NCBI GenBank assembly: GCA_964528595.1
Contig: CAZGTM010000011.1
Location: forward strand, 3,061 to 67,060
DNA from: an uncultured Rhodospirillaceae bacterium
GTDB lineage: Bacteria > Pseudomonadota > Alphaproteobacteria > UBA2966
DNA: 64,000 nucleotides
Direction of reading: 5' to 3'
Both the position numbers and the translations under genes were made by a program. Shown here one piece after another: positions 6,549-23,599 of this stretch; position 1 is the stretch's first letter, and each line of letters begins with the position of its first letter. Under the pieces are notes generated by a model, which was not told the origin of the DNA, did no database searches, and saw nothing but the letters and a program-made list of their open reading frames with translations.

Positions 6549-6995
6549 CTATTCGGGTGGCGGATCGAGCAGGGCGGTGAGACGGCGCGCCGCCGTTCGG
6601 GCGAAGGATAGCGTCAGGGCCTTGCGCCGGGCGGCGTTGACCTTGCGCACCTCGGCCTGGCGCACGATTTCGGCGCCGTAGCGGTCGGCGATAATCAATC
6701 CCTGATCCTCGGGCAGAATGTCTACCGGGAAGGTTTCGTCGACGGCGAAGTAGAAGCGGTCGCAATGGTCGAGGTAGTCCGGCCATTTGTTGTCGGCGCG
6801 GTAGTCGGCCACGGAGGACTTGATCTCAACGATGACAATGTTGCCCTTGCGCTCGATGGCGGCGACGTCGGCGCGCCGGCCGTTATTCAAATTGAATTCC
6901 TGCAGGGAGGCGTAGCCCAAATCTGCCAGCATGCGGGCCACGCCGCGGGCAAGCTGGCGGGCGGCGTCAGACCAATCCGCTGACGGCGACGGCAT
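6549..6995 (-). CDS. mmcB: MmcB family putative DNA-repair endonuclease
   Basis: GRRADV, IVEIKSS, DNKWPDYLDHCDRFYFAV, GLIIADRYGAEI signature. Confidence 0.88.
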   Translation of the reverse strand: MPSPSADWSDAARQLARGVARMLADLGYASLQEFNLNNGRRADVAAIERKGNIVIVEIKSSVADYRADNKWPDYLDHCDRFYFAVDETFPVDILPEDQGLIIADRYGAEIVRQAEVRKVNAARRKALTLSFARTAARRLTALLDPPPE

Positions 6996-7674
6996 CGTAG
7001 AGCGTGGCGAACCCGAGTCCCACAGTGGCGCTGCCCACCGTCAGATTGAGGGCGCGATAGGTGCCGGTGACGGCCCTGGCGCCGGCGCGCAACGGCAGGG
7101 CGATGGCGCAGGACAGCAAACCCATGCCGATCATCGATCCGATGCCGAAGAGGGCGATATAACCCAATCCCGCGGTGACCGAGGAGACGCTGTCGAGGGT
7201 GAGCAGGACCAGCGCGGCCGAGCCCGCCAGCCCGTGCATCAGCCCGAGCAGCAACGCCCGCCGGGGCAGGTTGCGCGCGTGGCGGTGGCTGTGCGCCGAC
7301 GCCCGGTGCTCGCCCTCGCCTCGGTGGGAGTGGGCGTGAACGTGGACCTCGTCGCCGTGGGCATGAGCGTGGAAGTGAACCCGGTCGCGCCACAAGCGCC
7401 ACAGCACATCGCCGCCCAGCGCGATCAGCATGATGCCGACCATAATCTCGGCGATCTGGGCCACCTCTCGCGCCGCCCCCCACTGGAAAACCAGGACCGC
7501 CGCGCCGAAGATGCTCAGCGTGACGGTATGCCCCACACCCCAGGCCAGGCCGAGCCGGACGGTGCGCCCGACCGACGAGCTCGCCGTGGCCAGCGAGGCG
7601 ACGGCGGCAACGTGATCGGCTTCCAGCGCATGCTTCATGCCGATCAGCAGGCCGAGGAACAGGATTGAGGTCAT
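6967..7674 (-). CDS. High-affinity Ni/Co transporter, UreH/HoxN-like
   Basis: HALEADHVAAV, WGVGHT, His-rich loop HFHAHAHGDEVHVHAHSH, GLMHGLAGSA; about six hydrophobic segments. Confidence 0.82.
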   Translation of the reverse strand: MTSILFLGLLIGMKHALEADHVAAVASLATASSSVGRTVRLGLAWGVGHTVTLSIFGAAVLVFQWGAAREVAQIAEIMVGIMLIALGGDVLWRLWRDRVHFHAHAHGDEVHVHAHSHRGEGEHRASAHSHRHARNLPRRALLLGLMHGLAGSAALVLLTLDSVSSVTAGLGYIALFGIGSMIGMGLLSCAIALPLRAGARAVTGTYRALNLTVGSATVGLGFATLYDAVAVSGLV

Positions 7675-7819: not shown

Positions 7820-7833
7820 TTGATCTACGTCAA
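7820..7833. promoter_or_regulatory. FNR/DNR-type box TTGAT-ctac-GTCAA
   Basis: One mismatch to TTGAT-N4-ATCAA; TATCCT at 7855-7860 and GGAGGA at 7869-7874 fit a class II (-41.5) promoter for the 7884 ORF. Confidence 0.8.
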
Positions 7834-8453: not shown

Positions 8454-8996
8454 ATGGCAATAACCCCCCCTGATGTAAAGCTGTGGTGGAAAGAGCCCAT
8501 CCACAGCATGGAAATCTGGTGGGCGCTGATCGCGCTCATCTGGTCATTGATCATGTTCGTGATGATGCCTTACTGGCATGTCTACGGAGAGCAGAACATC
8601 TCCAACGAAGCCTACCGCATTACGCCCGAGGCGTTCGGCGCCAAGGTCGAAGAGATGACCGAGAAGTACACGGTGCGCGAAGAAGGCGACACCGGCATCC
8701 CGGTCGTCCGCCCGCCGGCCGGCTCGGACGTCTATCTGCTGAGCCGCCTGTGGGAGTGGTGGCCGATCCTCGAACTGGAAAAGGGCAAGAGCTATCGTTT
8801 GCACCTGAGTTCGATGGACTGGCAGCACGGCTTCTCGCTGCAGCCCACCAACCTCAACCTGCAGGTCCATCCGGGCTATGACTTCGTCGTCACCGTCAAG
8901 CCGAACGAAGCCGGCACGTTTTCCATCGTCTGCAACGAGTACTGCGGAGAAGGGCATCACACGATGCTTGGCCGCATGTACGTCACAGACAAGTAA
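8454..8996 (+). CDS. Heme-copper oxidase superfamily subunit II (CuA cupredoxin, one TM)
   Basis: WQHGF...CNEYCGEGHHTM gives a complete CuA ligand set; single N-terminal TM as in B-family subunit II. Confidence 0.92.
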   Translation: MAITPPDVKLWWKEPIHSMEIWWALIALIWSLIMFVMMPYWHVYGEQNISNEAYRITPEAFGAKVEEMTEKYTVREEGDTGIPVVRPPAGSDVYLLSRLWEWWPILELEKGKSYRLHLSSMDWQHGFSLQPTNLNLQVHPGYDFVVTVKPNEAGTFSIVCNEYCGEGHHTMLGRMYVTDK

Positions 8997-9008: not shown

Positions 9009-10709
9009 ATGTCGATACTTTCGAAATTCCGTATCTGCCCTGAGTCAGGTCTCTACTTTGACGATGCGGCGGAGAAGCTGATCAAATGGAATGCCGTTAC
9101 GGCGGTCGTGTTCCTGCTGGTCGGCGGTCTGTTCGGATTGCTGATGGCGCTGACGCGCTGGCCAGAGGTCCACATTCTGCCGGCAGACCTGTTCTATATG
9201 CTGCTGACCGCGCACGGCCTCGACGCCCTTGTCGTCTGGATCGTGTTCTTCGAGATGGCGGTGCTCTACTTCGCTTCGTCGACGCTGCTGAAGGTCCGCC
9301 TGGCGGCGCCCAATTGGGCCTGGCTGGGCTACATCCTGATGCTGGTCGGCGCCGTTCTCACCAACGTCATGGTGCTGATGGGCGAATCGAGCGTCATGTT
9401 CACGGCCTACCCGCCGATGAAAGCCGATCCGCTGTTCTATCTCGGCATCATCCTGTTTGCCGTCGGCGCGCTGATCGGAACCTTCGTTTTCTTCGGCACC
9501 CTGGTGCTGGCGAAGGATCAGAAGACCTATGAAGGATCCGTCCCGCTGGTGACCTTCGGCGCCCTGACGGCGGCCATTATCGCCGTCTTCACGATCGCGT
9601 CGGGCGCCATCATCTTCGTGCCCACGCTGTTGTGGTCGCTGGGTTACATCGCCCACATCGATCCCTTGATGTACAAGACGGTGTTCTGGGCCTTCGGTCA
9701 CTCGGCGCAGCAGATCAACGTCTCGGCGCACGTGGCGGTTTGGTATGCCATCGCGGCCATCGTCTTCGGCGCCAAGCCGTTGAGCGAAAAAGTCAGCCGC
9801 ATGGCCTTCCTCTTCTACATCATGTTCCTGCAGCTCGCCTCGGCTCACCACTTGCTGGTGGAACCGGGCCTGTCGCCGGAGTGGAAGATCTTCAACACCT
9901 CCTACGCCATGTACCTCGCCGTGCTGGGCAGCATGATCCACGGTCTGACCGTGCCCGGCAGCATCGAGGCGGCGCAACGCAAGAAGGGTTTCACCAACGG
10001 CCTGTTCGAATGGCTGCGGCGTGCACCCTGGAGCAATCCGGTGTTCTCCGGCATGTTCCTGTCATTGGTCTTCTTCGGTTTCCTGGGCGGCATTACCGGC
10101 GTCATCATGGGCACCGAGCAGATCAACATCATCATGCACAACACCCTCTACGTACCGGGTCACTTCCATGCCACGGTCGTCGCGGGTACCACGTTGGCCT
10201 TCATGGCGATCAGTTACTTCCTGGTGCCGTTGTTGTTCCGGCGTGAGTTGTGGTGGCCGGGACTGGCCCGTTGGCAGCCGTACCTCTTCGGCTTCGGCGT
10301 GGCCGGCAACTCGCTCTTCATGATGGGCGCCGGTACGCTCGGCGTGTCTCGCCGGCACTGGGATATCGGTTTCGCCGATGCCTCGCTCGGTTTCGACTAT
10401 CCGGCTTCCGCCTACATGTTCCTGGCGCTTAACGGCCTCAGCGGCATTCTGGCGGCGGTTGGTGGTGCGGCGTTCTGCATCATCATGGTCGGCACCATCC
10501 TGTGGGGCAAACGCAAGGCCGATGCACCCGCACCGGCGGCCGAGCCCGCACCCGCACCCGCGGCGGAACCCGCCCTGCACACCGCAGGCGGCGCCCACTC
10601 GGTGACGGTGCCCGGTACGTTCGTCCTGGCCTTGGTCTTCCTCGGCACTTTCGTTCTCTACTACTTCGTGAACTGGAAGTACCTCGCCGAAGTCTGGCCG
10701 ATCTCGTAA
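9009..10709 (+). CDS. Heme-copper oxidase superfamily subunit I, eNOR-type nitric oxide reductase
   Basis: Six metal-ligand His present (H69; H231; H280,H281; H385,H387); helix VI reads GHSAQQIN, with Gln where O2 reductases have the cross-linked Tyr (HPxVY) and cNOR/qNOR have Glu (HLWVE); lies in a nir island. Confidence 0.85.
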   Translation: MSILSKFRICPESGLYFDDAAEKLIKWNAVTAVVFLLVGGLFGLLMALTRWPEVHILPADLFYMLLTAHGLDALVVWIVFFEMAVLYFASSTLLKVRLAAPNWAWLGYILMLVGAVLTNVMVLMGESSVMFTAYPPMKADPLFYLGIILFAVGALIGTFVFFGTLVLAKDQKTYEGSVPLVTFGALTAAIIAVFTIASGAIIFVPTLLWSLGYIAHIDPLMYKTVFWAFGHSAQQINVSAHVAVWYAIAAIVFGAKPLSEKVSRMAFLFYIMFLQLASAHHLLVEPGLSPEWKIFNTSYAMYLAVLGSMIHGLTVPGSIEAAQRKKGFTNGLFEWLRRAPWSNPVFSGMFLSLVFFGFLGGITGVIMGTEQINIIMHNTLYVPGHFHATVVAGTTLAFMAISYFLVPLLFRRELWWPGLARWQPYLFGFGVAGNSLFMMGAGTLGVSRRHWDIGFADASLGFDYPASAYMFLALNGLSGILAAVGGAAFCIIMVGTILWGKRKADAPAPAAEPAPAPAAEPALHTAGGAHSVTVPGTFVLALVFLGTFVLYYFVNWKYLAEVWPIS

Positions 10710-10719
10710 GGTCCGGATT

Positions 10720-11583
10720 ATGGGTGCCGCCGTCGGTCAACTGCTCTCGGTATTCAAACTGCGCATCGGCGTGGTGATAATGCTCAGCGCGTTGGCCGGA
10801 CTGGCGGTCACCCCCGGACCGCTACCGACTACCTTCCAAATGTTTGTGCTGGCCGCCGCCGTCTTGGTGTCGGCGGCCAGTGCGGGCGCTTTCAATCAAT
10901 ATGTCGAGCGCGACATCGACGGTCTGATGAAGCGCACGGCGGCCCGCCCGTTCGTTACGGGCGAGTACCTCGCCAGCCCCTATTGGCCGGTCGTCATCTG
11001 GGGTCTGATGGCCCTGGCTGTCGGGGCCGCGGCATTGGCCGTCAACGTCTGGGCGGCCCTCTACACATTTCTCGGCGCCTTCACCTATGCCATCGTCTAC
11101 ACGGTTTGGCTGAAGCGCCGCACTTGGCTCAACATCGTATTCGGTGGCCTCGCCGGCAGTTTTGCTGTTCTTGCCGGTGCTGCAGCCGTAGACCCCGGCT
11201 TTGCCGCATTGCCGTTCCTCATGGCGTTTGTCTTGTTCCTGTGGACCCCCCCCCACTTTTGGAGCTTGGCGCTGGCGCTCAAGGACGATTATGCGGCGGC
11301 CGGGGTCCCCATGTTGCCCGTGGTCATCGGCTCCCGCGCCGCCGCCCGCGTCATCCTGGCGAGCACCATTGCGCTGGTCGCCGTCTCGCTCCTGCCCGCC
11401 TTCGCCGGGCTGGGCTGGATCTACTTCAGCGCCGCCGCCGCCGGCGGTCTGGTTTTTATCTATTTCAGCGTCCGCCTGGTTTCGCAACCGACTCGGCGCC
11501 GCGCCATGCTCAATTTTTTTGCCTCTTTGATTCAACTATCCCTGCTGCTGGCAGGGGCCATGCTTGATCGCTGGCTTTTATAG
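10720..11583 (+). CDS. ctaB: Protoheme IX farnesyltransferase (heme o synthase)
   Basis: NQYVERDIDGLMKRTAARP, YTVWLKRRT, FLWTPPHFWSLA, DDYAAAGVPMLP. Confidence 0.93.
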   Translation: MGAAVGQLLSVFKLRIGVVIMLSALAGLAVTPGPLPTTFQMFVLAAAVLVSAASAGAFNQYVERDIDGLMKRTAARPFVTGEYLASPYWPVVIWGLMALAVGAAALAVNVWAALYTFLGAFTYAIVYTVWLKRRTWLNIVFGGLAGSFAVLAGAAAVDPGFAALPFLMAFVLFLWTPPHFWSLALALKDDYAAAGVPMLPVVIGSRAAARVILASTIALVAVSLLPAFAGLGWIYFSAAAAGGLVFIYFSVRLVSQPTRRRAMLNFFASLIQLSLLLAGAMLDRWLL

Positions 11584-12478: not shown

Positions 12479-14029
12479 GTGTTGAAGATGGTGCAGCGCC
12501 CGCTGTTGCGGGGCTTCGAACTTGCCGAAATCGGCTTTGACAAGCTTTTCGGGCGGGAGTGGAACCCGCTGTTTTATCTGGGCGCCTTGGCCTGGTTCAA
12601 CTTCTGGATCGTCGCGGCCAGCGGCATCTACCTCTACGTCGTTTTCGAGACAAGCATTCAGGGCGTTTACGATTCCATCGAGTACCTCACGCATGAGCAG
12701 TGGTACCTCGGCGGCGTCATGCGCAGCCTGCACCGCTATGCCTCCGACGCCCTGATCCTGGTGACCATGATCCATCTGCTGCGCGAGTTCGCCCTCGACC
12801 GCTACCGCGGCGTGCGCTGGTTCACCTGGACGCTGGGCGTGCCGATGCTCTGGCTCATCATAATGTCGGGCATCAACGGGTATTGGCTGGTGTGGGACGA
12901 AATGGCCCAGATGATCGCCGTCGCCACCGCCGAGTTGATCGACTGGTTTCCCATTTTCGGCGAACCCATCGCCCAGAACTTCCTGACCAAGGGCAGCATG
13001 GGCGACCGCTTCTTCAGCCTGCTGATTTTCCTCCACATTGCCATGCCGCTGATCCTGTTGTTCCTGATGTGGCTCCATCTGCAGCGCATGACCAACGCCC
13101 GCATCAATCCGCCGATGGGACTGGGCGTCGGCACGTTCCTCATGTTGCTCGGTCTCAGCCTGGTCTTTCCCGCCGTCAGCCACCAGCAGGCCGACCTCAG
13201 CCAGGTGCCGGCCGTCATCAACCTCGATTGGTACTATCTCTTCATCTATCCGCTGATCGATCTCTGGTCGGCCGGTCCGGTTTGGGGCCTGATCTACGGC
13301 CTCACCTTCCTGCTGATGCTGATGCCCTGGATGCCGCGCGAAAAACCGGGCGCGCCGGCCGTCGTTTCGGACGAGCAGTGCAACGGCTGCGAACGCTGTT
13401 ATGACGATTGCCCCTACAGTGCCATCCAGATGATGCCGCGCGAGGATGACAGCCCCTACGACAAGATCGCCGTGGTCAATGCCAGCTTGTGTGCGGCTTG
13501 TGGCATCTGCGTCGGTTCCTGCCCCACGCATACGCCGCTTCGGCGCGACGACCGCATCGCTATCGGCATCGACCTGCCCGACATCACGTTGCATCAGATG
13601 CGCGGCCAGGCGGTGGCGGCCGTCGCGGGTCTGCCCGACGGCCAGGCCAAGATCCTGCTGATCGGCTGTACCCGCGCCGTCAATGTCGAGCAACTCCGCC
13701 TCGACGGCATCGCCACGCTCGATCTGCCGTGCACCGGCGCCGTACCGCCGGCGCTGCTGGACTTCATGATGCGGCGCGGCGGCGTCGACGGCATCTTCCT
13801 CACCGGCTGCGGCGACGGTGAATGCTTCCACCGCATGGGCGGGCGCTGGGTCGAACAGCGTCTCGACGGCACGCGGGAAACCTATCTGCGCACGCGCTTC
13901 TCGCGCGACCGCATCCGGCTCTCGTGGGCGGCACCGGCCGATGCCGACCGCTTGCTGCAGGAGGTCATCGATTTCCGCGAACGGCTTGAACCGATCCCGG
14001 ACAAGGACCGCGACGAGGTGGCGTCATGA
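12479..14029 (+). CDS. Cytochrome b (bc-type) fused to 2x[4Fe-4S] ferredoxin and MvhD/FlpD-like [2Fe-2S] domains
   Basis: RSLH-x13-H and FLH-x13-H heme ligands, GYWLVWD, LDWY at the PEWY position; CNGCERCYDDCP and CAACGICVGSCP; LLIGC...LPCTG...GVDGIFLTGCGDGECFH. Confidence 0.88.
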   Translation: MLKMVQRPLLRGFELAEIGFDKLFGREWNPLFYLGALAWFNFWIVAASGIYLYVVFETSIQGVYDSIEYLTHEQWYLGGVMRSLHRYASDALILVTMIHLLREFALDRYRGVRWFTWTLGVPMLWLIIMSGINGYWLVWDEMAQMIAVATAELIDWFPIFGEPIAQNFLTKGSMGDRFFSLLIFLHIAMPLILLFLMWLHLQRMTNARINPPMGLGVGTFLMLLGLSLVFPAVSHQQADLSQVPAVINLDWYYLFIYPLIDLWSAGPVWGLIYGLTFLLMLMPWMPREKPGAPAVVSDEQCNGCERCYDDCPYSAIQMMPREDDSPYDKIAVVNASLCAACGICVGSCPTHTPLRRDDRIAIGIDLPDITLHQMRGQAVAAVAGLPDGQAKILLIGCTRAVNVEQLRLDGIATLDLPCTGAVPPALLDFMMRRGGVDGIFLTGCGDGECFHRMGGRWVEQRLDGTRETYLRTRFSRDRIRLSWAAPADADRLLQEVIDFRERLEPIPDKDRDEVAS

Positions 14030-14532
14030 GCAACATCCTCGACATGATCCGGCGTTACGCCGGCCAGGTAATCGCCTACATCGGCTTCGCCGTCCTGTTG
14101 GGATATTTCTCGGCGGCGCCCGACTGGTCGTACTTTCCCGACGACAAGGCCCTGATCAAGCTCAGCCTGACGCATGGCGGCCAACGCAAGGAAGCCTGCC
14201 GCGAACACACCAAGGAAGAACGCGCCAAGCTGCCGCCCACCGCCAAGCCGCCCAAGATCTGTCCCCGTGAACGCCATCCGGTGCGGGTGTCGATCTGGCT
14301 GGACGACAAGCAAATTTACGATGCGCTCGAAACCCCCATGGGGATCACCCGGGACGGCCCGTCCCAGTTCTACAAGCGCTTCCAGGTGGCGCCGGGCAAA
14401 CGTCTGTTGAAGGTCGAAATCGAGGACAGCGGCGGCAACCTTCCGCCGGTCGCCCAGTCGCGGGAAATCGAGCTGACCGCGCGCGGCGTGCTGGTCATCG
14501 AGGCCGACCACGGCAAACTTAAAATTCGATGA
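14026..14532 (+). CDS. Membrane-anchored protein of unknown function (two Cys)
   Basis: ATGA overlap with the cytochrome b fusion; one N-terminal TM, soluble beta-rich remainder; no CxxCH or Rieske motif. Confidence 0.8.
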   Translation: MSNILDMIRRYAGQVIAYIGFAVLLGYFSAAPDWSYFPDDKALIKLSLTHGGQRKEACREHTKEERAKLPPTAKPPKICPRERHPVRVSIWLDDKQIYDALETPMGITRDGPSQFYKRFQVAPGKRLLKVEIEDSGGNLPPVAQSREIELTARGVLVIEADHGKLKIR

Positions 14533-14569: not shown

Positions 14570-14668
14570 GCCGAGGCGACGTTCCTGTGTTAGCCTTTTA
14601 CGGCAACAACGGACACTTGGGGTTTGCGCGGCATGAGCGCCAGCACACAGATCGGGGGATCGGCCGGG

Positions 14669-15364
14669 ATGGAACCCGAGGTAATTTCGCGGGTTGCGAA
14701 AATACCTCTGTTCGCCGGTCTCACCAAGGCGGCGATCGCGGCCCTGTTGGGCAACGCCGTGGTTTCCATCGCACCCGCGGGGACGGTTCTGTTCGCCCAG
14801 GGCGACGTGGCCGACCGCTTCTACGTCCAGCTTGACGGTCAGATCGAACTTTATGTCGTCGCCCCAGACGGGCGCGAAAGCGTGATCGATATCCTGGGCG
14901 CCGGCGAAACCTTCGCCGAGGAGGCCATCTTCGACACCGGCGTGTTTCCGGTCGGCGCCAAGGTGGTGAGCGACGCCCGCATCGTCGCCGTCGAGGCCGA
15001 ACCCTTCCTGGCCCAGCTGACCAGCGAGTTCGATTTGGTGCTGGCGATGATGGGCGGCATGTCACGCCACCTCAGGGTTTTGCTCTATCAGATCAGCGAA
15101 CTCAAATTGAAGTCGACGGCCCAGCGCCTCGGCGGCTTCCTGCTGAGTTTGACCGAGGCCGACGACGGCGAAATCGTCGTCGAGCTGCCCTATGACAAAC
15201 GCCTGCTGGCCAACCGGCTCGGCATGAAGCCCGAAAGCCTCTCCCGCGCCCTGGCCAAGCTCAGGGAAATCGGCGTGCAGGACGTCGAAGGCGTCCTGAC
15301 CATTGCCGATGTCGGCAGCTTGCGCGATTTCTGCCTTGAGGGCGGCCCCGGAGACGCCGCTTGA
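14669..15364 (+). CDS. Crp/Fnr family regulator, DNR/NnrR type
   Basis: LFAQGD, GETFAE, HTH GMKPESLSRAL (E--SR recognition helix); no N-terminal Cys cluster; alternative start 14633. Confidence 0.9.
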   Translation: MEPEVISRVAKIPLFAGLTKAAIAALLGNAVVSIAPAGTVLFAQGDVADRFYVQLDGQIELYVVAPDGRESVIDILGAGETFAEEAIFDTGVFPVGAKVVSDARIVAVEAEPFLAQLTSEFDLVLAMMGGMSRHLRVLLYQISELKLKSTAQRLGGFLLSLTEADDGEIVVELPYDKRLLANRLGMKPESLSRALAKLREIGVQDVEGVLTIADVGSLRDFCLEGGPGDAA

Positions 15365-15472: not shown

Positions 15473-16189
15473 GTGCCGTCCCATCTGCTCGGACCTGAGG
15501 AAATTGCGCGCATCGCGCACATTGGGCCGTTCGCCGACCTGCCGCTGGATGACGTGGCGGGACTGGTGGGCGGCGCGCACGTGCGCGATCACGCCAAGCA
15601 TTCCCTGCTGTTCAGCCAGGGCGACGTCGCCGACCGCTTCTATGTCTGCCTTGATGGCCGGGTGAAGCTGTTCACCGCGACGGAGGAAGGCGACGAGAAC
15701 GTCGTCGGCGTGTTCAGCTCGGGCCAATCCTTCGGCGAGGCCGCCATGTTCGCCTCCGGCCGCTTCCCGGTAAACGCCGAGGTCGTGGAAGACGCCCGTC
15801 TCGTGCAGATCATGGCCGAACCGATGATCCAGCACCTTTCGGACAACAAGGACCTGGCCTTTCGCATGCTCGGCCTGATGGCGCGCCGGCATCGCAGGTT
15901 TCAGAAGGACATCGCCGATTTCAAGTCAAAATCGCCGGGCCAGCGCCTCGGCGGTTTTCTGCTGGCGCTGACCGATGTCGAAAGCGGACCGGCCAATGCC
16001 CAGCTGCCGTTCGACAAGGCCCTGATCGCCGCCCGCATCGGCATCAAACCGGAAAGCCTGTCCCGGGCACTGGCGCGCCTGCGCGAAATCGGCGTCGATT
16101 GCCATGGCCGGGAAGTCGACATCGAGAATGTCGAAACGCTGAGGGCATTTTGCGAAGAAGGCGACATGCAGGCCCGCCACAAGCTATAG
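15473..16189 (+). CDS. Crp/Fnr family regulator, DNR/NnrR type (second paralogue)
   Basis: LFSQGD, GQSFGEAAMF, GIKPESLSRAL; GGAGG RBS with GTG start. Confidence 0.9.
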   Translation: MPSHLLGPEEIARIAHIGPFADLPLDDVAGLVGGAHVRDHAKHSLLFSQGDVADRFYVCLDGRVKLFTATEEGDENVVGVFSSGQSFGEAAMFASGRFPVNAEVVEDARLVQIMAEPMIQHLSDNKDLAFRMLGLMARRHRRFQKDIADFKSKSPGQRLGGFLLALTDVESGPANAQLPFDKALIAARIGIKPESLSRALARLREIGVDCHGREVDIENVETLRAFCEEGDMQARHKL

Positions 16190-16199
16190 AGATTGGGCG

Positions 16200-17360
16200 T
16201 TAGCCGGGCCGGCCGTCGGGCCTTGGGCTCAGCAGCACCGGCGCATACACCACCACGAATATCGAGAACGCGGCGGTCCACAGAAGGCCGGCGACGTAGT
16301 TGGCTTCGACGCTCAGTCCGGGCGCGATGGACGGCACGATGATCCTGATCAGTGCCGCCGCACTGACGGCGGCATAGGTCCAGGGGATGACGGGCCGGAT
16401 GTCGAGCGGCCGTCCGGTGTGACCCAGGGCAACGCGTGTCATCATGCCCAGGGTGAGGGAGCCCACGGCGCCCAGCGTCAGCGCGTGCAGCGCCGTGGCC
16501 ATGGGCAGGAAGTCGGTTAGTGCCGCGATGCCGCGCAAGGCAAAGCCCACAACGACCCAGAGGTAGGCCAGATGCAGGATCCAAAGGATAGGCGTCTTGA
16601 GCGTCGCCATGCCGCCCCAGCCCGACAGCCGGATGCCGTTGGCTAGGGCGGCGGCAAGGCAAAGCAGTCCGATCGCGATGTTCGGCGCCGCGACAAGGTC
16701 GGCGGCGGCGACGGCCAGGACCAGCGTCACGGCGGCCTTGTCGGCGGCGGGCCGCAGCACCGGCTGGGTGCCTAAGGCGTTGCGCGTAAAGGCCGGCGTA
16801 ATTCGTCCGCCCACCATGACCATGATCAGCAGGACCAGGTCGAGGGCGGCGTAAAGGGCGGCGGTGGCGAAACCGTCGATGTAACCGAGCGCCTCCAGGT
16901 GAATGATCAGGTTGGCCACGGCCATGAGCCCGAGCAGGACGGTAAACGCGGTATTGGCGAACCTGCCCGCCTTCAGAAGCGCCGGCAGCAGGACCAGGGC
17001 GACCCCCGGCAGGAACAGCAGGTCGGCCAGGGCGACCAGCGGGCCGGGCAGGGCGTCGGCAAACAGGAGGGCGAGACGCCCGGCCAGCCAGAACGCGGCC
17101 AGCAGGGCAAGCGGCGCGCCCTTGATGTTCGCCGTGCCCGTCCAGTTGGCCACCGCGGTGAGGAGAAAGCCGGCAATCACGGCGGCCGAATAGCCGAAGA
17201 TCAACTCATGGCCGTGCCAGCCCACAGCGCCGAGGTAGCCGGGGGCGCTGATGACGCCCTGCAGCATGACGACCCAGATGGGGATCAGCACGGCGGCGGC
17301 GATGCCGCCGAATAAAAAGAAGACGCGGAAGCCATAGGTGAAGAGAATTCTGTCGAACAT
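16200..17360 (-). CDS. nnrS: NnrS family membrane protein
   Basis: GFRVFFL, WHGHELIFGY, GFLLTAVANWTG, GGRITPAFT, MMTRVALGHTGR, PRPDGRPG C-terminus. Confidence 0.93.
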   Translation of the reverse strand: MFDRILFTYGFRVFFLFGGIAAAVLIPIWVVMLQGVISAPGYLGAVGWHGHELIFGYSAAVIAGFLLTAVANWTGTANIKGAPLALLAAFWLAGRLALLFADALPGPLVALADLLFLPGVALVLLPALLKAGRFANTAFTVLLGLMAVANLIIHLEALGYIDGFATAALYAALDLVLLIMVMVGGRITPAFTRNALGTQPVLRPAADKAAVTLVLAVAAADLVAAPNIAIGLLCLAAALANGIRLSGWGGMATLKTPILWILHLAYLWVVVGFALRGIAALTDFLPMATALHALTLGAVGSLTLGMMTRVALGHTGRPLDIRPVIPWTYAAVSAAALIRIIVPSIAPGLSVEANYVAGLLWTAAFSIFVVVYAPVLLSPRPDGRPG

Positions 17361-17486
17361 CGAAGGGGTACCGTTGAGAGATGAACTAAAGCGATTTCCG
17401 ATTAATCGGAAACGCCTCGCCTCATGTTTGCGAGGCAGCGAAATGTGTTAACAGCCCTCGGTGTTTCAAGCAAAACTTGAACCACC

Positions 17487-18481
17487 CTAGGCGTCAGCGC
17501 GGAAGCTGGCCTGACTGCCGTTGGTAAACGTGACAAGGGCGGCCTCGCCGCCGGCCTGGCGCAACATTTGGGAAATGGTGTCGGGCGGCATCATCGTCAA
17601 TGCCGTCGAAAGCGCATCGGCAATCGTTGCGGTTTTCGCGATGACCGAAACCGAGCGGTAGCGAACCGGCGACAGACCGTTGCGCGGATCGATCAGATGG
17701 TGGAACCGGCCCCGCGCATCAAAACGCAGGCCGGCGCCGCTGGACGTCGCGATCGCTCCGCCGGACAAGGGCACAATCGATCCCGTCACGGGCGGGGTGT
17801 TACCGTCCGCCAAGGCGATGCGCCAGGGCTGGCCGGGCGCGCGCGGACCCAGGGCCCGATATTCGCCGAGATTGATCAGCACATGGCGAAGACCGGCGGA
17901 CCGCAAAAGATCGGCGATGCGGTCGGTAATGAAGCCCTGGGCGATGCCGTTGAAGGTGAGCGCCTGTCCCGGTCCCAACCGGACGGCGGCGGGGGCGGCT
18001 GAGATCCGCCGCCAGTCCACCCGGCGCAGTGTCCGGTCGACGGACGCGCGGGACGGGCCCTCGGCCGACGCTTTGGGATTTTCGAAGTGACCGGCATACA
18101 AGCGCCACAAGGGCTGCACGGTGGGATCGAACGCGCCGTTCGACAGGCGGGAGATATTAATGGCATCCCCGAGCAGCCGCAGCATGTCGGCGGAGGGGGC
18201 CTCGAGCTCGCCCGCCGCGTTCAGCCTGCGCAATGCGGAGGCCTCCTGGAAGAGGCTGAATTCCGCCTCCAGTCGCCTGATTTCAGCGACGCAGGCGGTA
18301 ATCACCTCCGCTGCCCGCCGTTCTTCAAGGCCGACGATCTTGATGCTGGCCTGGGTGCCCAGCGCCGCGCCCCGCCATTGCCGCATGAGGCGTCCCGAAG
18401 CGGCTGTGGCGCCGGCCGGCAGCAGGGCGGCGCCCGCGGCGGCGGCGGTCAGCGAAATGGCGCGGCGGCGGCTGATGGGGG

Positions 18482-18485
<4 letters not shown>
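17487..18485 (-). CDS. nirX: FAD:protein FMN transferase (ApbE/NosX/NirX)
   Basis: Tat-like signal MTPISRRRAI, ALGT, GAFDPTVQPLW, NGIAQG, ATSS, HLIDP, ADALSTAL; ATGA overlap with the upstream NirI/NosR gene. Confidence 0.88.
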
Positions 18486-22694
<4,209 letters not shown>

Positions 22695-22704
22695 CGGGTC
22701 TCCG

Positions 22705-22730
22705 CCGGGCGGGGTTTCGGCTCCGCCCGG
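22705..22730 (+). terminator. GC-rich hairpin after nirS (terminator or mRNA stabiliser)
   Basis: CCGGGCGGGG-tttcgg-CTCCGCCCGG just after the stop; weak U-tract. Confidence 0.55.
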
Positions 22731-22777
22731 TCGGGCCTTTGGTCAATGTGAAATGTTTTATCCCGTGGGGGGATGAG

Positions 22778-23599
22778 ATGAAAAAAACAGCACCCGGCAG
22801 GTCATCAGATGCGGCGAACGTCTTTCTCGTGGGCGCCGGTCCGGGCGACCCCGAGCTTCTGACGGTCAAAGCCCTGAGGCTCATACAATCGGCGGAGGTC
22901 GTGGTTTACGACCGCCTCGTCGGTCCCGAAATTCTCGATCTTATTCCGGTCGGCGCCAGCCGCATCAATGCGGGCAAGGCCGCCGGCGCGCATCACCTGC
23001 CGCAGGATGAGATCAATCAGACCCTGGTCCGCCTGGGACGTAGCGGCCGCCGCACCGTCCGCCTCAAGGGCGGCGATCCCTTCGTCTTCGGGCGCGGTTC
23101 CGAGGAAGCCCTGGAGCTCGTCGCCGCCGGCATCCCGTTTGAGGTCGTGCCCGGTATCAGCGCCGCCACCGGCGCCAGCGCTTATGCCGGCATTCCGCTC
23201 ACCCATCGTGGGTTGGCGCGCAGCGTCCGTTTTGTCACCGGCCACTGCCGCGAAGACAAACCGCTGGATCTCAACTGGCAGAGCCTGGCTGATGCCGACA
23301 CCACGCTGGTCGTCTATATGGGCCTGGCCAACCTCAAGGAAATTTCGCGCCATCTTATCGAGCACGGCCTGGCCGGGTCGACCCCGGCCGCAGCCATCGA
23401 AAACGGCACGACGAGCGGCCAGCGCCGGCTGGTCTCGACCTTGGCCGAGCTGCCGGGCGACGTGACGGCGCAGGAATTCCGTGCGCCTTGCCTGCTGGTC
23501 ATCGGCCGGGTGGTCGAGCTTGCGGGCGCTCTCGATTGGTTCGCCGACGCCGGGACAGGCGCGGCGGAACTGGACAATGTCTTGGTCGCGGCTCAATAG
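22778..23599 (+). CDS. nirE: Uroporphyrinogen-III C-methyltransferase (heme d1 synthesis)
   Basis: LVGAGPGDPELLT, RLKGGDPFVFGRG, VPGISA, GIPLTHRG; position after nirS. Confidence 0.93.
   Translation: MKKTAPGRSSDAANVFLVGAGPGDPELLTVKALRLIQSAEVVVYDRLVGPEILDLIPVGASRINAGKAAGAHHLPQDEINQTLVRLGRSGRRTVRLKGGDPFVFGRGSEEALELVAAGIPFEVVPGISAATGASAYAGIPLTHRGLARSVRFVTGHCREDKPLDLNWQSLADADTTLVVYMGLANLKEISRHLIEHGLAGSTPAAAIENGTTSGQRRLVSTLAELPGDVTAQEFRAPCLLVIGRVVELAGALDWFADAGTGAAELDNVLVAAQ

Follow-up and report, generated by a model that had tools for sequence, protein, structure and literature searches.

What does a cytochrome b without a Rieske partner do in the operon of a nitric oxide (NO) reductase? The question is raised by a 64,000-nt stretch of DNA (hereafter the window) from an uncultured Rhodospirillaceae bacterium (GCA_964528595.1, contig CAZGTM010000011.1, positions 3,061-67,060; genome label G000, window C11:3061-67060), whose assembly is 94.5% complete and consists of 140 contigs. 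Behind the genes for a predicted NO reductase of the eNOR type, an open reading frame (ORF) of 516 aa (12479-14029) fuses a cytochrome b domain to a ferredoxin domain for two [4Fe-4S] clusters and an MvhD/FlpD-type domain, and an ORF of 168 aa (14026-14532) follows it; the original prediction had placed both ORFs at these positions. We refer to the fusion as FUS and to the smaller protein as p168. We find that p168 is the second subunit of the FUS module, with which it makes up a conserved two-gene unit, and that the module is co-inherited with eNOR, near-completely across the sampled Pseudomonadota.

Domains, ligands and fold of FUS

Pfam places Cytochrome_B (PF00033) at residues 29-203 of FUS (E 1.4e-18), Fer4 families at 295-351 (E ~1e-8; Fer4_7 scores 36 bits against a cut-off of 27) and FlpD (PF02662) at 411-504 (E 3.6e-13, 50 bits against a cut-off of 22.3). 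FUS is the only FlpD match and the only PF00033 match in the genome. NCBIfam adds partial matches, all below cut-offs, to ExtP/cytochrome b6 (N-terminus), ExtQ (220-294) and the C-terminal part of HdrA2 (292-507). A profile search of solved structures with FUS returned cytochrome b6 (E 1e-24), polyferredoxins, and the MvhD chains 9sw2_D (6.8e-12) and 5odc_D (8.6e-11). FUS has more than 4818 homologues, which public annotation names "cytochrome b N-terminal domain-containing protein" or "hydrogenase iron-sulfur subunit".

Ligand conservation was scored across 92 homologues. The cytochrome b domain contains two H-x13-H pairs, H85/H99 and H186/H200, and all four His are kept in 92/92. The ferredoxin domain contains C301-x2-C304-x2-C307-x3-C311-P and C338-x2-C341-x2-C344-x3-C348-P, with all eight Cys in 92/92, and the MvhD-type domain contains Cys 397, 418, 444, and 449 (within IGC, PCTG, and GCGDGEC), present in 92, 92, 91, and 91 of the homologues. 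In Mvh-Hdr structures, the four Cys of MvhD hold a [2Fe-2S] cluster; C418, C444, and C449, three of the four in FUS, each stand opposite a Cys in the printed alignments to 5odc_D and 9sw2_D. As judged from the alignments, this conservation is far beyond chance. The motif of FUS at the Qo-type position is xDW[FY]. Compared with PEWY/PDWY, the carboxylate and Trp are retained, here invariantly, and the Pro is mostly lost (LDWF in 57, LDWY in 11, IDWF in 8, PDWF in 6, FDWF in 5, MDWF in 2, PDWY in 2, and LDWW in 1 of the 92). The original prediction had read the four haem His, the LDWY motif, two CxxCxxCxxxCP motifs, and a four-Cys MvhD/FlpD domain in this gene; all are seen in the translation, and the family matches and conserved ligands bear them out.

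The AlphaFold2 model of FUS (predicted local distance difference test score, pLDDT, 75.6; predicted template modelling score, pTM, 0.73) has six transmembrane (TM) helices (30-55, 77-106, 114-137, 176-202, 213-229, and 265-284) followed by two soluble domains. Its best Foldseek matches are bc1 cytochrome b chains over ~285-290 columns (E 2e-7), after which the ferredoxin domain begins. FUS stops after helix F, and helices G and H are absent. The six helices of the model thus fall short of both the eight of bc1 cytochrome b and the seven of b6 plus subunit IV. In bc and b6f complexes, the N-terminus of cytochrome b is on the cytoplasmic (n) side. Since six helices bring the C-terminal domains back to the side of the N-terminus, the iron-sulfur (FeS) and MvhD domains of FUS should be cytoplasmic in the modeled topology, the location that had been proposed for them.

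p168, the second subunit of the FUS module

The stop of FUS and the start of p168 overlap as ATGA (14026-14029), in keeping with the translational coupling that the original prediction had seen; the partnership described here goes beyond it. We compared 80 genome loci with a FUS relative (46-95% identity). As the top-scoring relatives, all from a single orthologous group, these loci do not count as independent. p168 follows FUS in 79/80, and the one exception is a contig ending 2 nt past FUS. The pair also travels together when FUS is detached from eNOR (12 kb to ~930 kb away, or on another contig): FUS and p168 were found together in 7/7 fetched regions (L091-L096, L102), and two of the three annotated detached pairs adjoin nirS.

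The two proteins also occur as one chain. A profile search of 1.84 billion cluster representatives gave 698 FUS relatives at E <=1e-30, of which the best 150 were examined. The p168 domain is in the same chain as FUS in 71 of these 150, and the order cytochrome b, ferredoxin, MvhD, p168 is found in 67/150. Residues 547-658 of P0125, for example, match p168 with 38% identity (E 2e-27). These natural fusions run from MvhD in the cytoplasm through one helix to the beta domain in the periplasm, which fixes the topology and agrees with cytoplasmic FeS domains. The informative fusions are 600-830 aa long; a search for longer fused forms (904-2580 aa) gave only an HdrA at E 1e-4.

p168 itself belongs to no Pfam or NCBIfam family, and in the ESM Atlas it falls only in "hypothetical protein" clusters, from Pseudomonadota. 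Its AlphaFold2 model (pLDDT 95) consists of a single N-terminal helix (TM 2-30) and a periplasmic beta-sandwich. A Foldseek search of the PDB had no hit at E <=0.001, and a wide VIA-align search returned generic beta-sandwiches only, the best being the luminal domain of HGSNAT (Z 8.8), with no functional lead. Across 90 sequences, the conserved residues are H50, C58, C79, R81, and R83. C58 and C79 occupy paired bridge positions in the model, which looks like a periplasmic disulfide. A CxxH...CxxxxH pattern in the p168 of the window had hinted at a 2Cys-2His site that could stand in for Rieske, but the 90 sequences do not keep H61 and H84, and this idea was rejected. The same sequences show no conserved CxH/CxxH boxes and no conserved set of redox ligands for a relay to CuA.

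The FUS-p168 complex was predicted with two haems and two clusters included, using our own alignments, in three runs and alongside three controls. The ipSAE score was 0.81 in each of the three runs, compared to 0.00 for the best control; contacts agreed to at least 94%, and the partner pLDDT was at least 79. The 0.81 mark is reached by 58/80 solved complexes and 2/110 mismatched pairs, counts that hold only roughly for FUS-p168 because of the ligands and of our own alignments in its prediction. The predicted interface pairs FUS 20-25, 86-94, 145-170, 218-232, and 240-261 with p168 10-39, 43-49, 105, 114, 116, and 153-159. In it, the p168 helix (10-39) is packed on helices B (86-94) and E (218-232), and the start of the beta domain contacts the cd (145-170) and ef (240-261) loops and, within the latter, the invariant D250-W251. 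In bc complexes, this cd/ef-loop face is the docking site of the Rieske head. The prediction supports binding of p168 to FUS.

Linkage to eNOR and the surrounding genes

We searched 401 genomes of the phylum (400 plus that of the window, which the counts leave out) with eNOR subunit I and FUS. eNOR I is present in 50/400 (49 at E <1e-175 and one truncated copy) and FUS in 52 (E <1e-100). Both are present in 49 and neither in 347, one of which (G383) is flagged unpublished. In the sole eNOR-only genome, the contig ends directly after SCO; the three FUS-only genomes, with no eNOR detected, are fragmented, at 77%, 82%, and 96% completeness, and the third of them comprises 730 contigs. With FUS in 49/50 eNOR genomes and 0/347 others, the fusion is tied to eNOR; the independent distribution that the original prediction had named as a refutation is not what these genomes show.

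The gene order eNOR II, eNOR I, (CtaB), SCO, FUS, p168 is found in all 68 loci with enough upstream DNA. eNOR I is upstream on the same strand in 68/80 loci, the other 12 having <=1,986 nt upstream, and SCO precedes FUS in 77/80, the other three having <=244 nt upstream. CtaB lies between eNOR I and FUS in 37/80. In the fetched regions L100 and L101, where eNOR is apart from FUS, CtaB and SCO remain beside eNOR.

Other genes recur at these loci. A 131-aa hemerythrin-domain gene comes after p168 (e.g., L012:12089-12484) in 58/74 loci with room for it, or 66/92 by clustering. As an obligate partner it was rejected, being absent beside the window operon, with genome copies only 27-30% identical and on C24 and C40. 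A divergent COX1-like ORF of ~455 aa lies just after p168 or nearby in L098 (12392-13777), L137 (10473-11843), and L128 (10581-11939, minus strand), and also in L104 and L141. It scores only 45-54 bits with Pfam COX1, has no NCBIfam match, and is ~26% identical to eNOR I; in L098 a CtaA homologue comes after it. In three eNOR-carrying genomes, ORFs of 736-739 aa (G106:C245, G134:C78, G186:C96) match FUS 298-506 only (~29% identity) and are possibly HdrA2-like. One locus, L054 (G406), has a proteobacterial-type eNOR operon in a genome with no archaeal ribosomal protein S19e, so its title as a haloarchaeal metagenome-assembled genome (MAG) is likely wrong.

The neighbouring enzyme was assigned by comparison. 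According to a section of PMC8756737, eNOR carries a Gln where oxygen reductases carry the cross-linked active-site Tyr, and part of Murali et al. 2024 describes a B-family relationship and a CuA-containing subunit II. The nearest solved structures to subunit I of the window are Thermus ba3 oxidases (E ~1e-45), and its HSAQQ aligns opposite ba3 HPIVY, so the cross-link Tyr is replaced by Gln. Subunit II contains the CuA ligand motif H125...C160-x3-C164-x3-H168-x2-M171 (H-x34-C-x3-C-x3-H-x2-M). Having the Gln, the ba3 relationship, and the CuA motif, the predicted subunits I and II fit eNOR.

The genes of an ordinary bc complex were sought in the same genomes. No Rieske or c1 gene is on the window's contig. 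The Rieske matches of the genome are on other contigs (C36, C4, and C87, in frames of 382, 464, and 131 aa), cytochrome c1 has no match in the genome, and no ORF with a bc-type Rieske motif was found in 92 related loci with flanks of up to 10 kb. That no Rieske or c1 gene adjoins FUS, as originally noted, is borne out, and for Rieske extends to the 92 loci. A normal cytochrome b (260-268 bits) is present besides FUS in 5/5 relatives tested, one of them with a 95% identical FUS, and FUS is missing from the ~300 genomes of the phylum whose only cytochrome b is a normal one. No ordinary cytochrome b was found in the window's assembly, which, given the 5/5 relatives, is probably an assembly gap. 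We considered and rejected a genome without bc1 in which FUS replaces it, since 5/5 relatives carry both normal cytochrome b and c1 and the assembly is 94.5% complete. FUS is best read as an addition to bc1 rather than a replacement for it. The window's genome encodes four haem-copper enzymes; if the absence of bc1 were real, the organism would lack it despite these.

From ORFs, Pfam, and NCBIfam, eNOR II, eNOR I, CtaB, SCO, FUS, p168, and two Crp/FNR regulators follow one another closely on the plus strand (Table 1). The row sits in a denitrification island, with NnrS, ApbE/NirX-like, NirI/NosR-like, NirS, NirE, and NirDL genes downstream. FNR-type boxes number five in the window compared to 0.8 expected, with five or more in 0/100 shuffles, and lie ahead of the operon and of nirS; the box at 20800 falls within the longest nirS ORF. 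The setting of nirS, nnrS, nirI, and FNR boxes is consistent with an NO reductase role for the neighbouring predicted eNOR.

Two of the gene calls may need adjustment. The true start of SCO is perhaps an ATG ten codons inside the called ORF, and the ApbE/NirX-like and NirI/NosR-like ORFs overlap on the minus strand, so one start is probably over-called. Typical Sco proteins have an N-terminal anchor only. The SCO of the window has CYHIC, an N-terminal signal/anchor, and an extra C-terminal TM helix with a basic tail. Upstream of the operon, a 245-aa ORF (6931-7668, plus strand) has no Pfam or NCBIfam match and is found in the same position in the close relative L011 (62% identity).

Table 1 Features of the FUS-p168 locus, in window coordinates
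Feature	Position	Strand	Basis or remark
FNR/Dnr-type box	7820-7833		upstream of eNOR II
FNR/Dnr-type box TTGATCAACGTCAA	8147..8160	+	~300 bp upstream of eNOR II
eNOR subunit II (CuA cupredoxin)	8454..8996	+	weak CoxB and NosZ CuA-region matches; CuA motif
eNOR subunit I (B-family-related haem-copper oxidoreductase, Tyr to Gln)	9009..10709	+	PF00115 E 6e-67
Haem O synthase CtaB	10720..11583	+	TIGR01473, 263.7 bits, above cut-off
SCO1/SenC-type copper chaperone, CYHIC motif, C-terminal TM helix	11564..12466	+	PF02630 E 1.1e-10
FUS: cytochrome b + 2x[4Fe-4S] ferredoxin + MvhD/FlpD fusion, 516 aa, GTG start	12479..14029	+	ORF, Pfam, NCBIfam, AlphaFold2 model
FUS, six-helix dihaem cytochrome b domain, residues 1-290	12479..13348	+	His 85/99/186/200, LDWY 249-252
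FUS, two-cluster [4Fe-4S] ferredoxin domain, residues 295-352	13361..13534	+	Fer4 families; FwdF, polyferredoxin, and HdrA C-terminus matches
FUS, MvhD/FlpD-type domain, residues 395-505, four Cys, presumed [2Fe-2S]	13661..13993	+	PF02662, MvhD chains, Cys alignment
p168, 168 aa	14026..14532	+	ORF directly after FUS
Crp/FNR (FtrB-like) regulator	14624..15364	+	Pfam, NCBIfam
Second Crp/FNR regulator	15473..16189	+	Pfam, NCBIfam
NnrS	16200-17360	-	
ApbE/NirX-like gene	17487-19097	-	
NirI/NosR-like gene, with FMN_bind + Fer4_5	18482-20764	-	4 kb from the FUS module
NirS	20754-22694		divergent, like NirE, from the NnrS/ApbE/NirI genes; all within 16200-23599

Proposed electron path, alternative roles, and significance

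The variants among the 150 representatives bear on the direction of electron flow. In place of ferredoxin-MvhD, the cytochrome b of P0161 carries a Flavodoxin+FAD+NAD module like that of cytochrome P450 reductase (CPR), and P0162 carries a Fer2+FAD+NAD module like that of phthalate dioxygenase reductase. P0160 has Fer2 alone, and in P0199 and P0233 cytochrome b is joined directly to p168. P0245 (1/150) has a cytochrome c domain (CKVCH) after the p168-like domain, which recalls an ORF in Table A3 of PMC8756737 that combines cytochrome b6, DMSOR_beta-like, FlpD, and cytochrome c domains. Two further chains were discounted: the tail of P0129 looks out of frame, and P0204, cytochrome b plus EF-Ts, is likely chimeric.

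Flavoprotein paralogues also occur in eNOR clusters beside the standard FUS in three metagenome loci. L104 has eNOR I-CtaB-FUS-p168 with a CPR-type paralogue 4.5 kb downstream, L139 has eNOR II-I-CtaB-SCO-FNR-type-p168-FUS, and in L141 an FNR-type paralogue is divergent to the eNOR operon. On sequence grounds, these paralogues show that NAD(P)H-flavoprotein modules can take the place of the usual cytoplasmic end. Such modules (in cytochrome P450 reductase, phthalate dioxygenase reductase, and NADPH oxidases) donate electrons to haem or FeS acceptors. Because they are donors in known relatives, flow from the cytoplasm to the p side is favored, and the analogy suggests this direction, which would also be assisted by the membrane potential. 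Several small genomes (1.7-2.3 Mb; G105:C1 and G069:C1, which are L097 and L098, and others of family f38) have two tandem FUS copies between SCO and a single p168, and both copies keep all 16 ligands (4 His, 12 Cys). In bc complexes the working form of cytochrome b is a dimer, so FUS heterodimers are conceivable.

We judge it an even prospect that FUS-p168 is a two-subunit, Rieske-less cytochrome b complex dedicated to eNOR, one that acts as a private reductant line by a logic like that of NosR/NirI. The six-helix dihaem cytochrome b would cross the membrane with the 2x[4Fe-4S] and MvhD domains hanging in the cytoplasm, and p168 would be anchored by one helix beside helices B/E, its beta-sandwich over the cd/ef-loop face including D250-W251. 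Electrons may then pass from a cytoplasmic carrier to the MvhD cluster, the two [4Fe-4S] clusters, haem bH, haem bL, and a p-side pocket holding a quinone or other acceptor. This would keep eNOR and its metal centres supplied or active, and would not be a Q-cycle. Cofactor loading, direction of flow, p-side acceptor, and physiological role are here those that we infer for FUS-p168. Of the original interpretation, the cytoplasmic FeS domains, the tie to eNOR, and the departure from an ordinary bc complex are supported; its feed to CuA, supercomplex, and assembly role are candidate functions.

Reducing power for NosZ and NirS is presumed to be supplied or maintained by NosR and NirI. Like FUS, these proteins sit in the membrane, have [4Fe-4S] motifs on the cytoplasmic side, and are encoded next to a periplasmic or membrane Cu/haem N-oxide reductase. 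The analogy is functional only: there is no sequence relationship, and they have FMN_bind and Fer4_5 domains and no haems, whereas FUS has neither domain by Pfam. NarI-NarH, the redox loop of respiratory nitrate reductase, follows the same logic as FUS: a cytoplasmic FeS chain is wired to a dihaem cytochrome b in the membrane whose quinone site is on the p side. Its cytochrome b fold is unrelated (NarI compared to bc type), and FUS is without a known catalytic end subunit.

Several observations weigh against a private reductant line. Among the 49 genomes with both genes, eNOR I and FUS are within 5 kb in 24, on the same contig but 12 kb to ~930 kb apart in four, and on different contigs in 21. 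The possible ligands of p168 are only H50, C58, and C79, the two Cys likely forming a disulfide, so no route from haem bL to CuA is evident. The confidence of the FUS model is moderate (pLDDT 75.6), with the ef loop (243-252) below 50 in the monomer model, and the direction of flow rests on analogy with the paralogues. Isolated R. marinus eNOR reduces NO with N,N,N',N'-tetramethyl-p-phenylenediamine (TMPD)/ascorbate, as stated in part of Murali et al. 2024, so with artificial donors the module is not needed for in vitro catalysis.

A role in assembly only is conceivable, though we lean well away from it. FUS-p168 would be a transmembrane metalloreductase or thiol reductant source that works with SCO in CuA or FeB insertion, in a role comparable to that of the FeS cupric reductase CcoG for cbb3 oxidase, and would be idle once eNOR is mature. 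The gene is placed after ctaB and sco (SCO precedes in 77/80) and not between the structural genes, and the unusual C-terminal TM helix of SCO could pack against the module. The separation of FUS-p168 from eNOR in the four same-contig genomes and in others with different contigs, with CtaB and SCO staying behind (L100, L101), also suits this role. P0255 even fuses SCO to cytochrome b, but there is no TM helix between the periplasmic SCO and the cytoplasmic N-terminus of cytochrome b, making this fusion doubtful and maybe an assembly or frameshift artefact. Against assembly, the tandem duplicates and NAD(P)H-linked paralogues resemble respiratory diversification, the proteins are detectable in a proteome according to the Ferrigenium preprint (bioRxiv 10.64898/2026.01.22.701106), and PCuAC is already encoded elsewhere in the genome.

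Energy coupling, which that preprint proposes, is in our view unlikely. Here the Qo-like pocket would oxidise quinol, sending one electron to a high-potential NO-linked acceptor and the other through bL, bH, and FeS to NAD(P)H or ferredoxin, within an eNOR supercomplex. The carboxylate-Trp motif xDW[FY] is kept in 92/92 homologues, MvhD homologues occur in bifurcating Hdr complexes (as PDB titles state), NAD(P)-binding paralogues are present in eNOR clusters, and P0245 has a periplasmic cytochrome c after its p168-like domain. The FUS carriers include MAGs titled Sulfuricaulis and Acidiferrobacterales, presumably chemolithoautotrophs. However, no one-electron high-potential centre lies by the pocket, as p168 is without conserved redox ligands and no Rieske gene is nearby. 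By bioenergetic principles, such a transfer, directed from the p to the n side, would have both the membrane potential and the redox gradient against it. The predicted interface also sets conserved p168 residues on D250/W251, so the pocket may be occupied.

The same preprint describes the closest published operon. In Ferrigenium straubiae, the eNOR operon contains eNOR II and I, haem O synthase, sco1, a "scaffold protein of unknown function", and two cytochrome b fusion genes (bioRxiv 10.64898/2026.01.22.701106). The fusions, cytochrome b-[Fe-S](-FAD-NAD), are called "rather unusual", a supercomplex coupling NO reduction to NAD+ reduction is proposed, and the Ferrigenium counterparts were detected in the proteome of a denitrifying culture. 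By description, though not by sequence comparison, this is the operon type of the window. What differs here is that the fusion is near-universal in the sampled proteobacterial eNOR genomes, p168 is the partner, and MvhD is the usual cytoplasmic end. The original prediction had called the module a candidate undescribed conduit. This stands for function, as a full-text literature search found no characterisation of a cytochrome b-ferredoxin-MvhD fusion, but not for the genes and the supercomplex idea, which the preprint already holds. Murali et al. 2024 does not mention MvhD, ferredoxin, "gene cluster", or "neighborhood" in its main text (0 occurrences), and its six mentions of "cytochrome b" concern other enzymes or references. 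A broader version also strikes us as improbable: that FUS-p168, which in certain lineages would form a heterodimer with an NAD(P)H-flavoprotein paralogue, docks on eNOR in an NO-respiratory supercomplex bypassing bc1 and cytochrome c, for NO reduction driven by NAD(P)H or ferredoxin or for Rieske-independent quinol bifurcation.

FeS clusters and haems react with NO, and FUS-p168 could be an NO/redox sensor or a protective electron sink, whose haems and FeS clusters report or buffer NO stress with no sustained flux. The hemerythrin gene after p168 in 58/74 loci with room and the adjacent NnrS and FNR-type regulators would suit this role. We consider it very improbable, as there is no output domain, the invariant full chain of electron-transfer ligands and the swappable NAD(P)H modules argue for throughput, and the hemerythrin gene is absent beside the window operon. 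That FUS is the cytochrome b of an ordinary bc complex with Rieske and c1 encoded elsewhere, which the original prediction had named as a possible refutation, is scarcely credible: FUS is homologous to cytochrome b6 and bc1 cytochrome b and supplies the only PF00033 match of the genome, but its helices number six and not seven or eight, the predicted place of p168 is the face where a Rieske head would dock, the 92 loci contain no ORF with a bc-type Rieske motif, and the 5/5 relatives and ~300 genomes above separate it from the normal protein.

FUS-p168 is of a kind already known, that of cytochrome b-based membrane redox modules. With cytochrome b6 and bc1 cytochrome b, its best matches in sequence and fold, FUS shares the four-helix dihaem bundle, the two H-x13-H pairs, helices E/F, and a PEWY-type motif. 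It differs in its six helices, xDW[FY], C-terminal FeS domains, lack of a nearby Rieske or c1/f partner, novel single-pass subunit predicted on the Rieske-docking face, and coexistence with a normal cytochrome b in relatives. With HdrA2/MvhD/FlpD it shares the arrangement of ferredoxin and four-Cys MvhD (NCBIfam HdrA2 570-772 matches FUS 292-507, E 8e-21), here tethered to a membrane cytochrome in a denitrifier. No HdrA or hydrogenase is among the annotated neighbours of FUS, the genome as a whole not having been searched for HdrA. The anammox Rieske/cytochrome b complexes, in which bc-type modules are proposed to link to NAD(P)H-forming FeS/flavin subunits in N-oxide metabolism, retain Rieske proteins in the account given in part of PMC12954380; none is present with FUS.

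New here are the p168 partnership, the near-complete co-inheritance with eNOR in the sampled Pseudomonadota, and the modular cytoplasmic end. eNOR is a widespread, recently validated source of nitrous oxide (N2O) that may conserve energy, according to part of Murali et al. 2024. We found no description of its electron supply or maturation in the papers that we read. The 698 cluster representatives (E <=1e-30) make up a well-populated Rieske-less branch of cytochrome b, whose cytoplasmic end is swapped among MvhD, FNR-like, and CPR-like modules and which bears on how bc-type cytochromes can be rewired into transmembrane electron conduits. FUS and p168 together are a candidate marker pair for eNOR-type denitrifiers in metagenomes and a concrete target for experiments.

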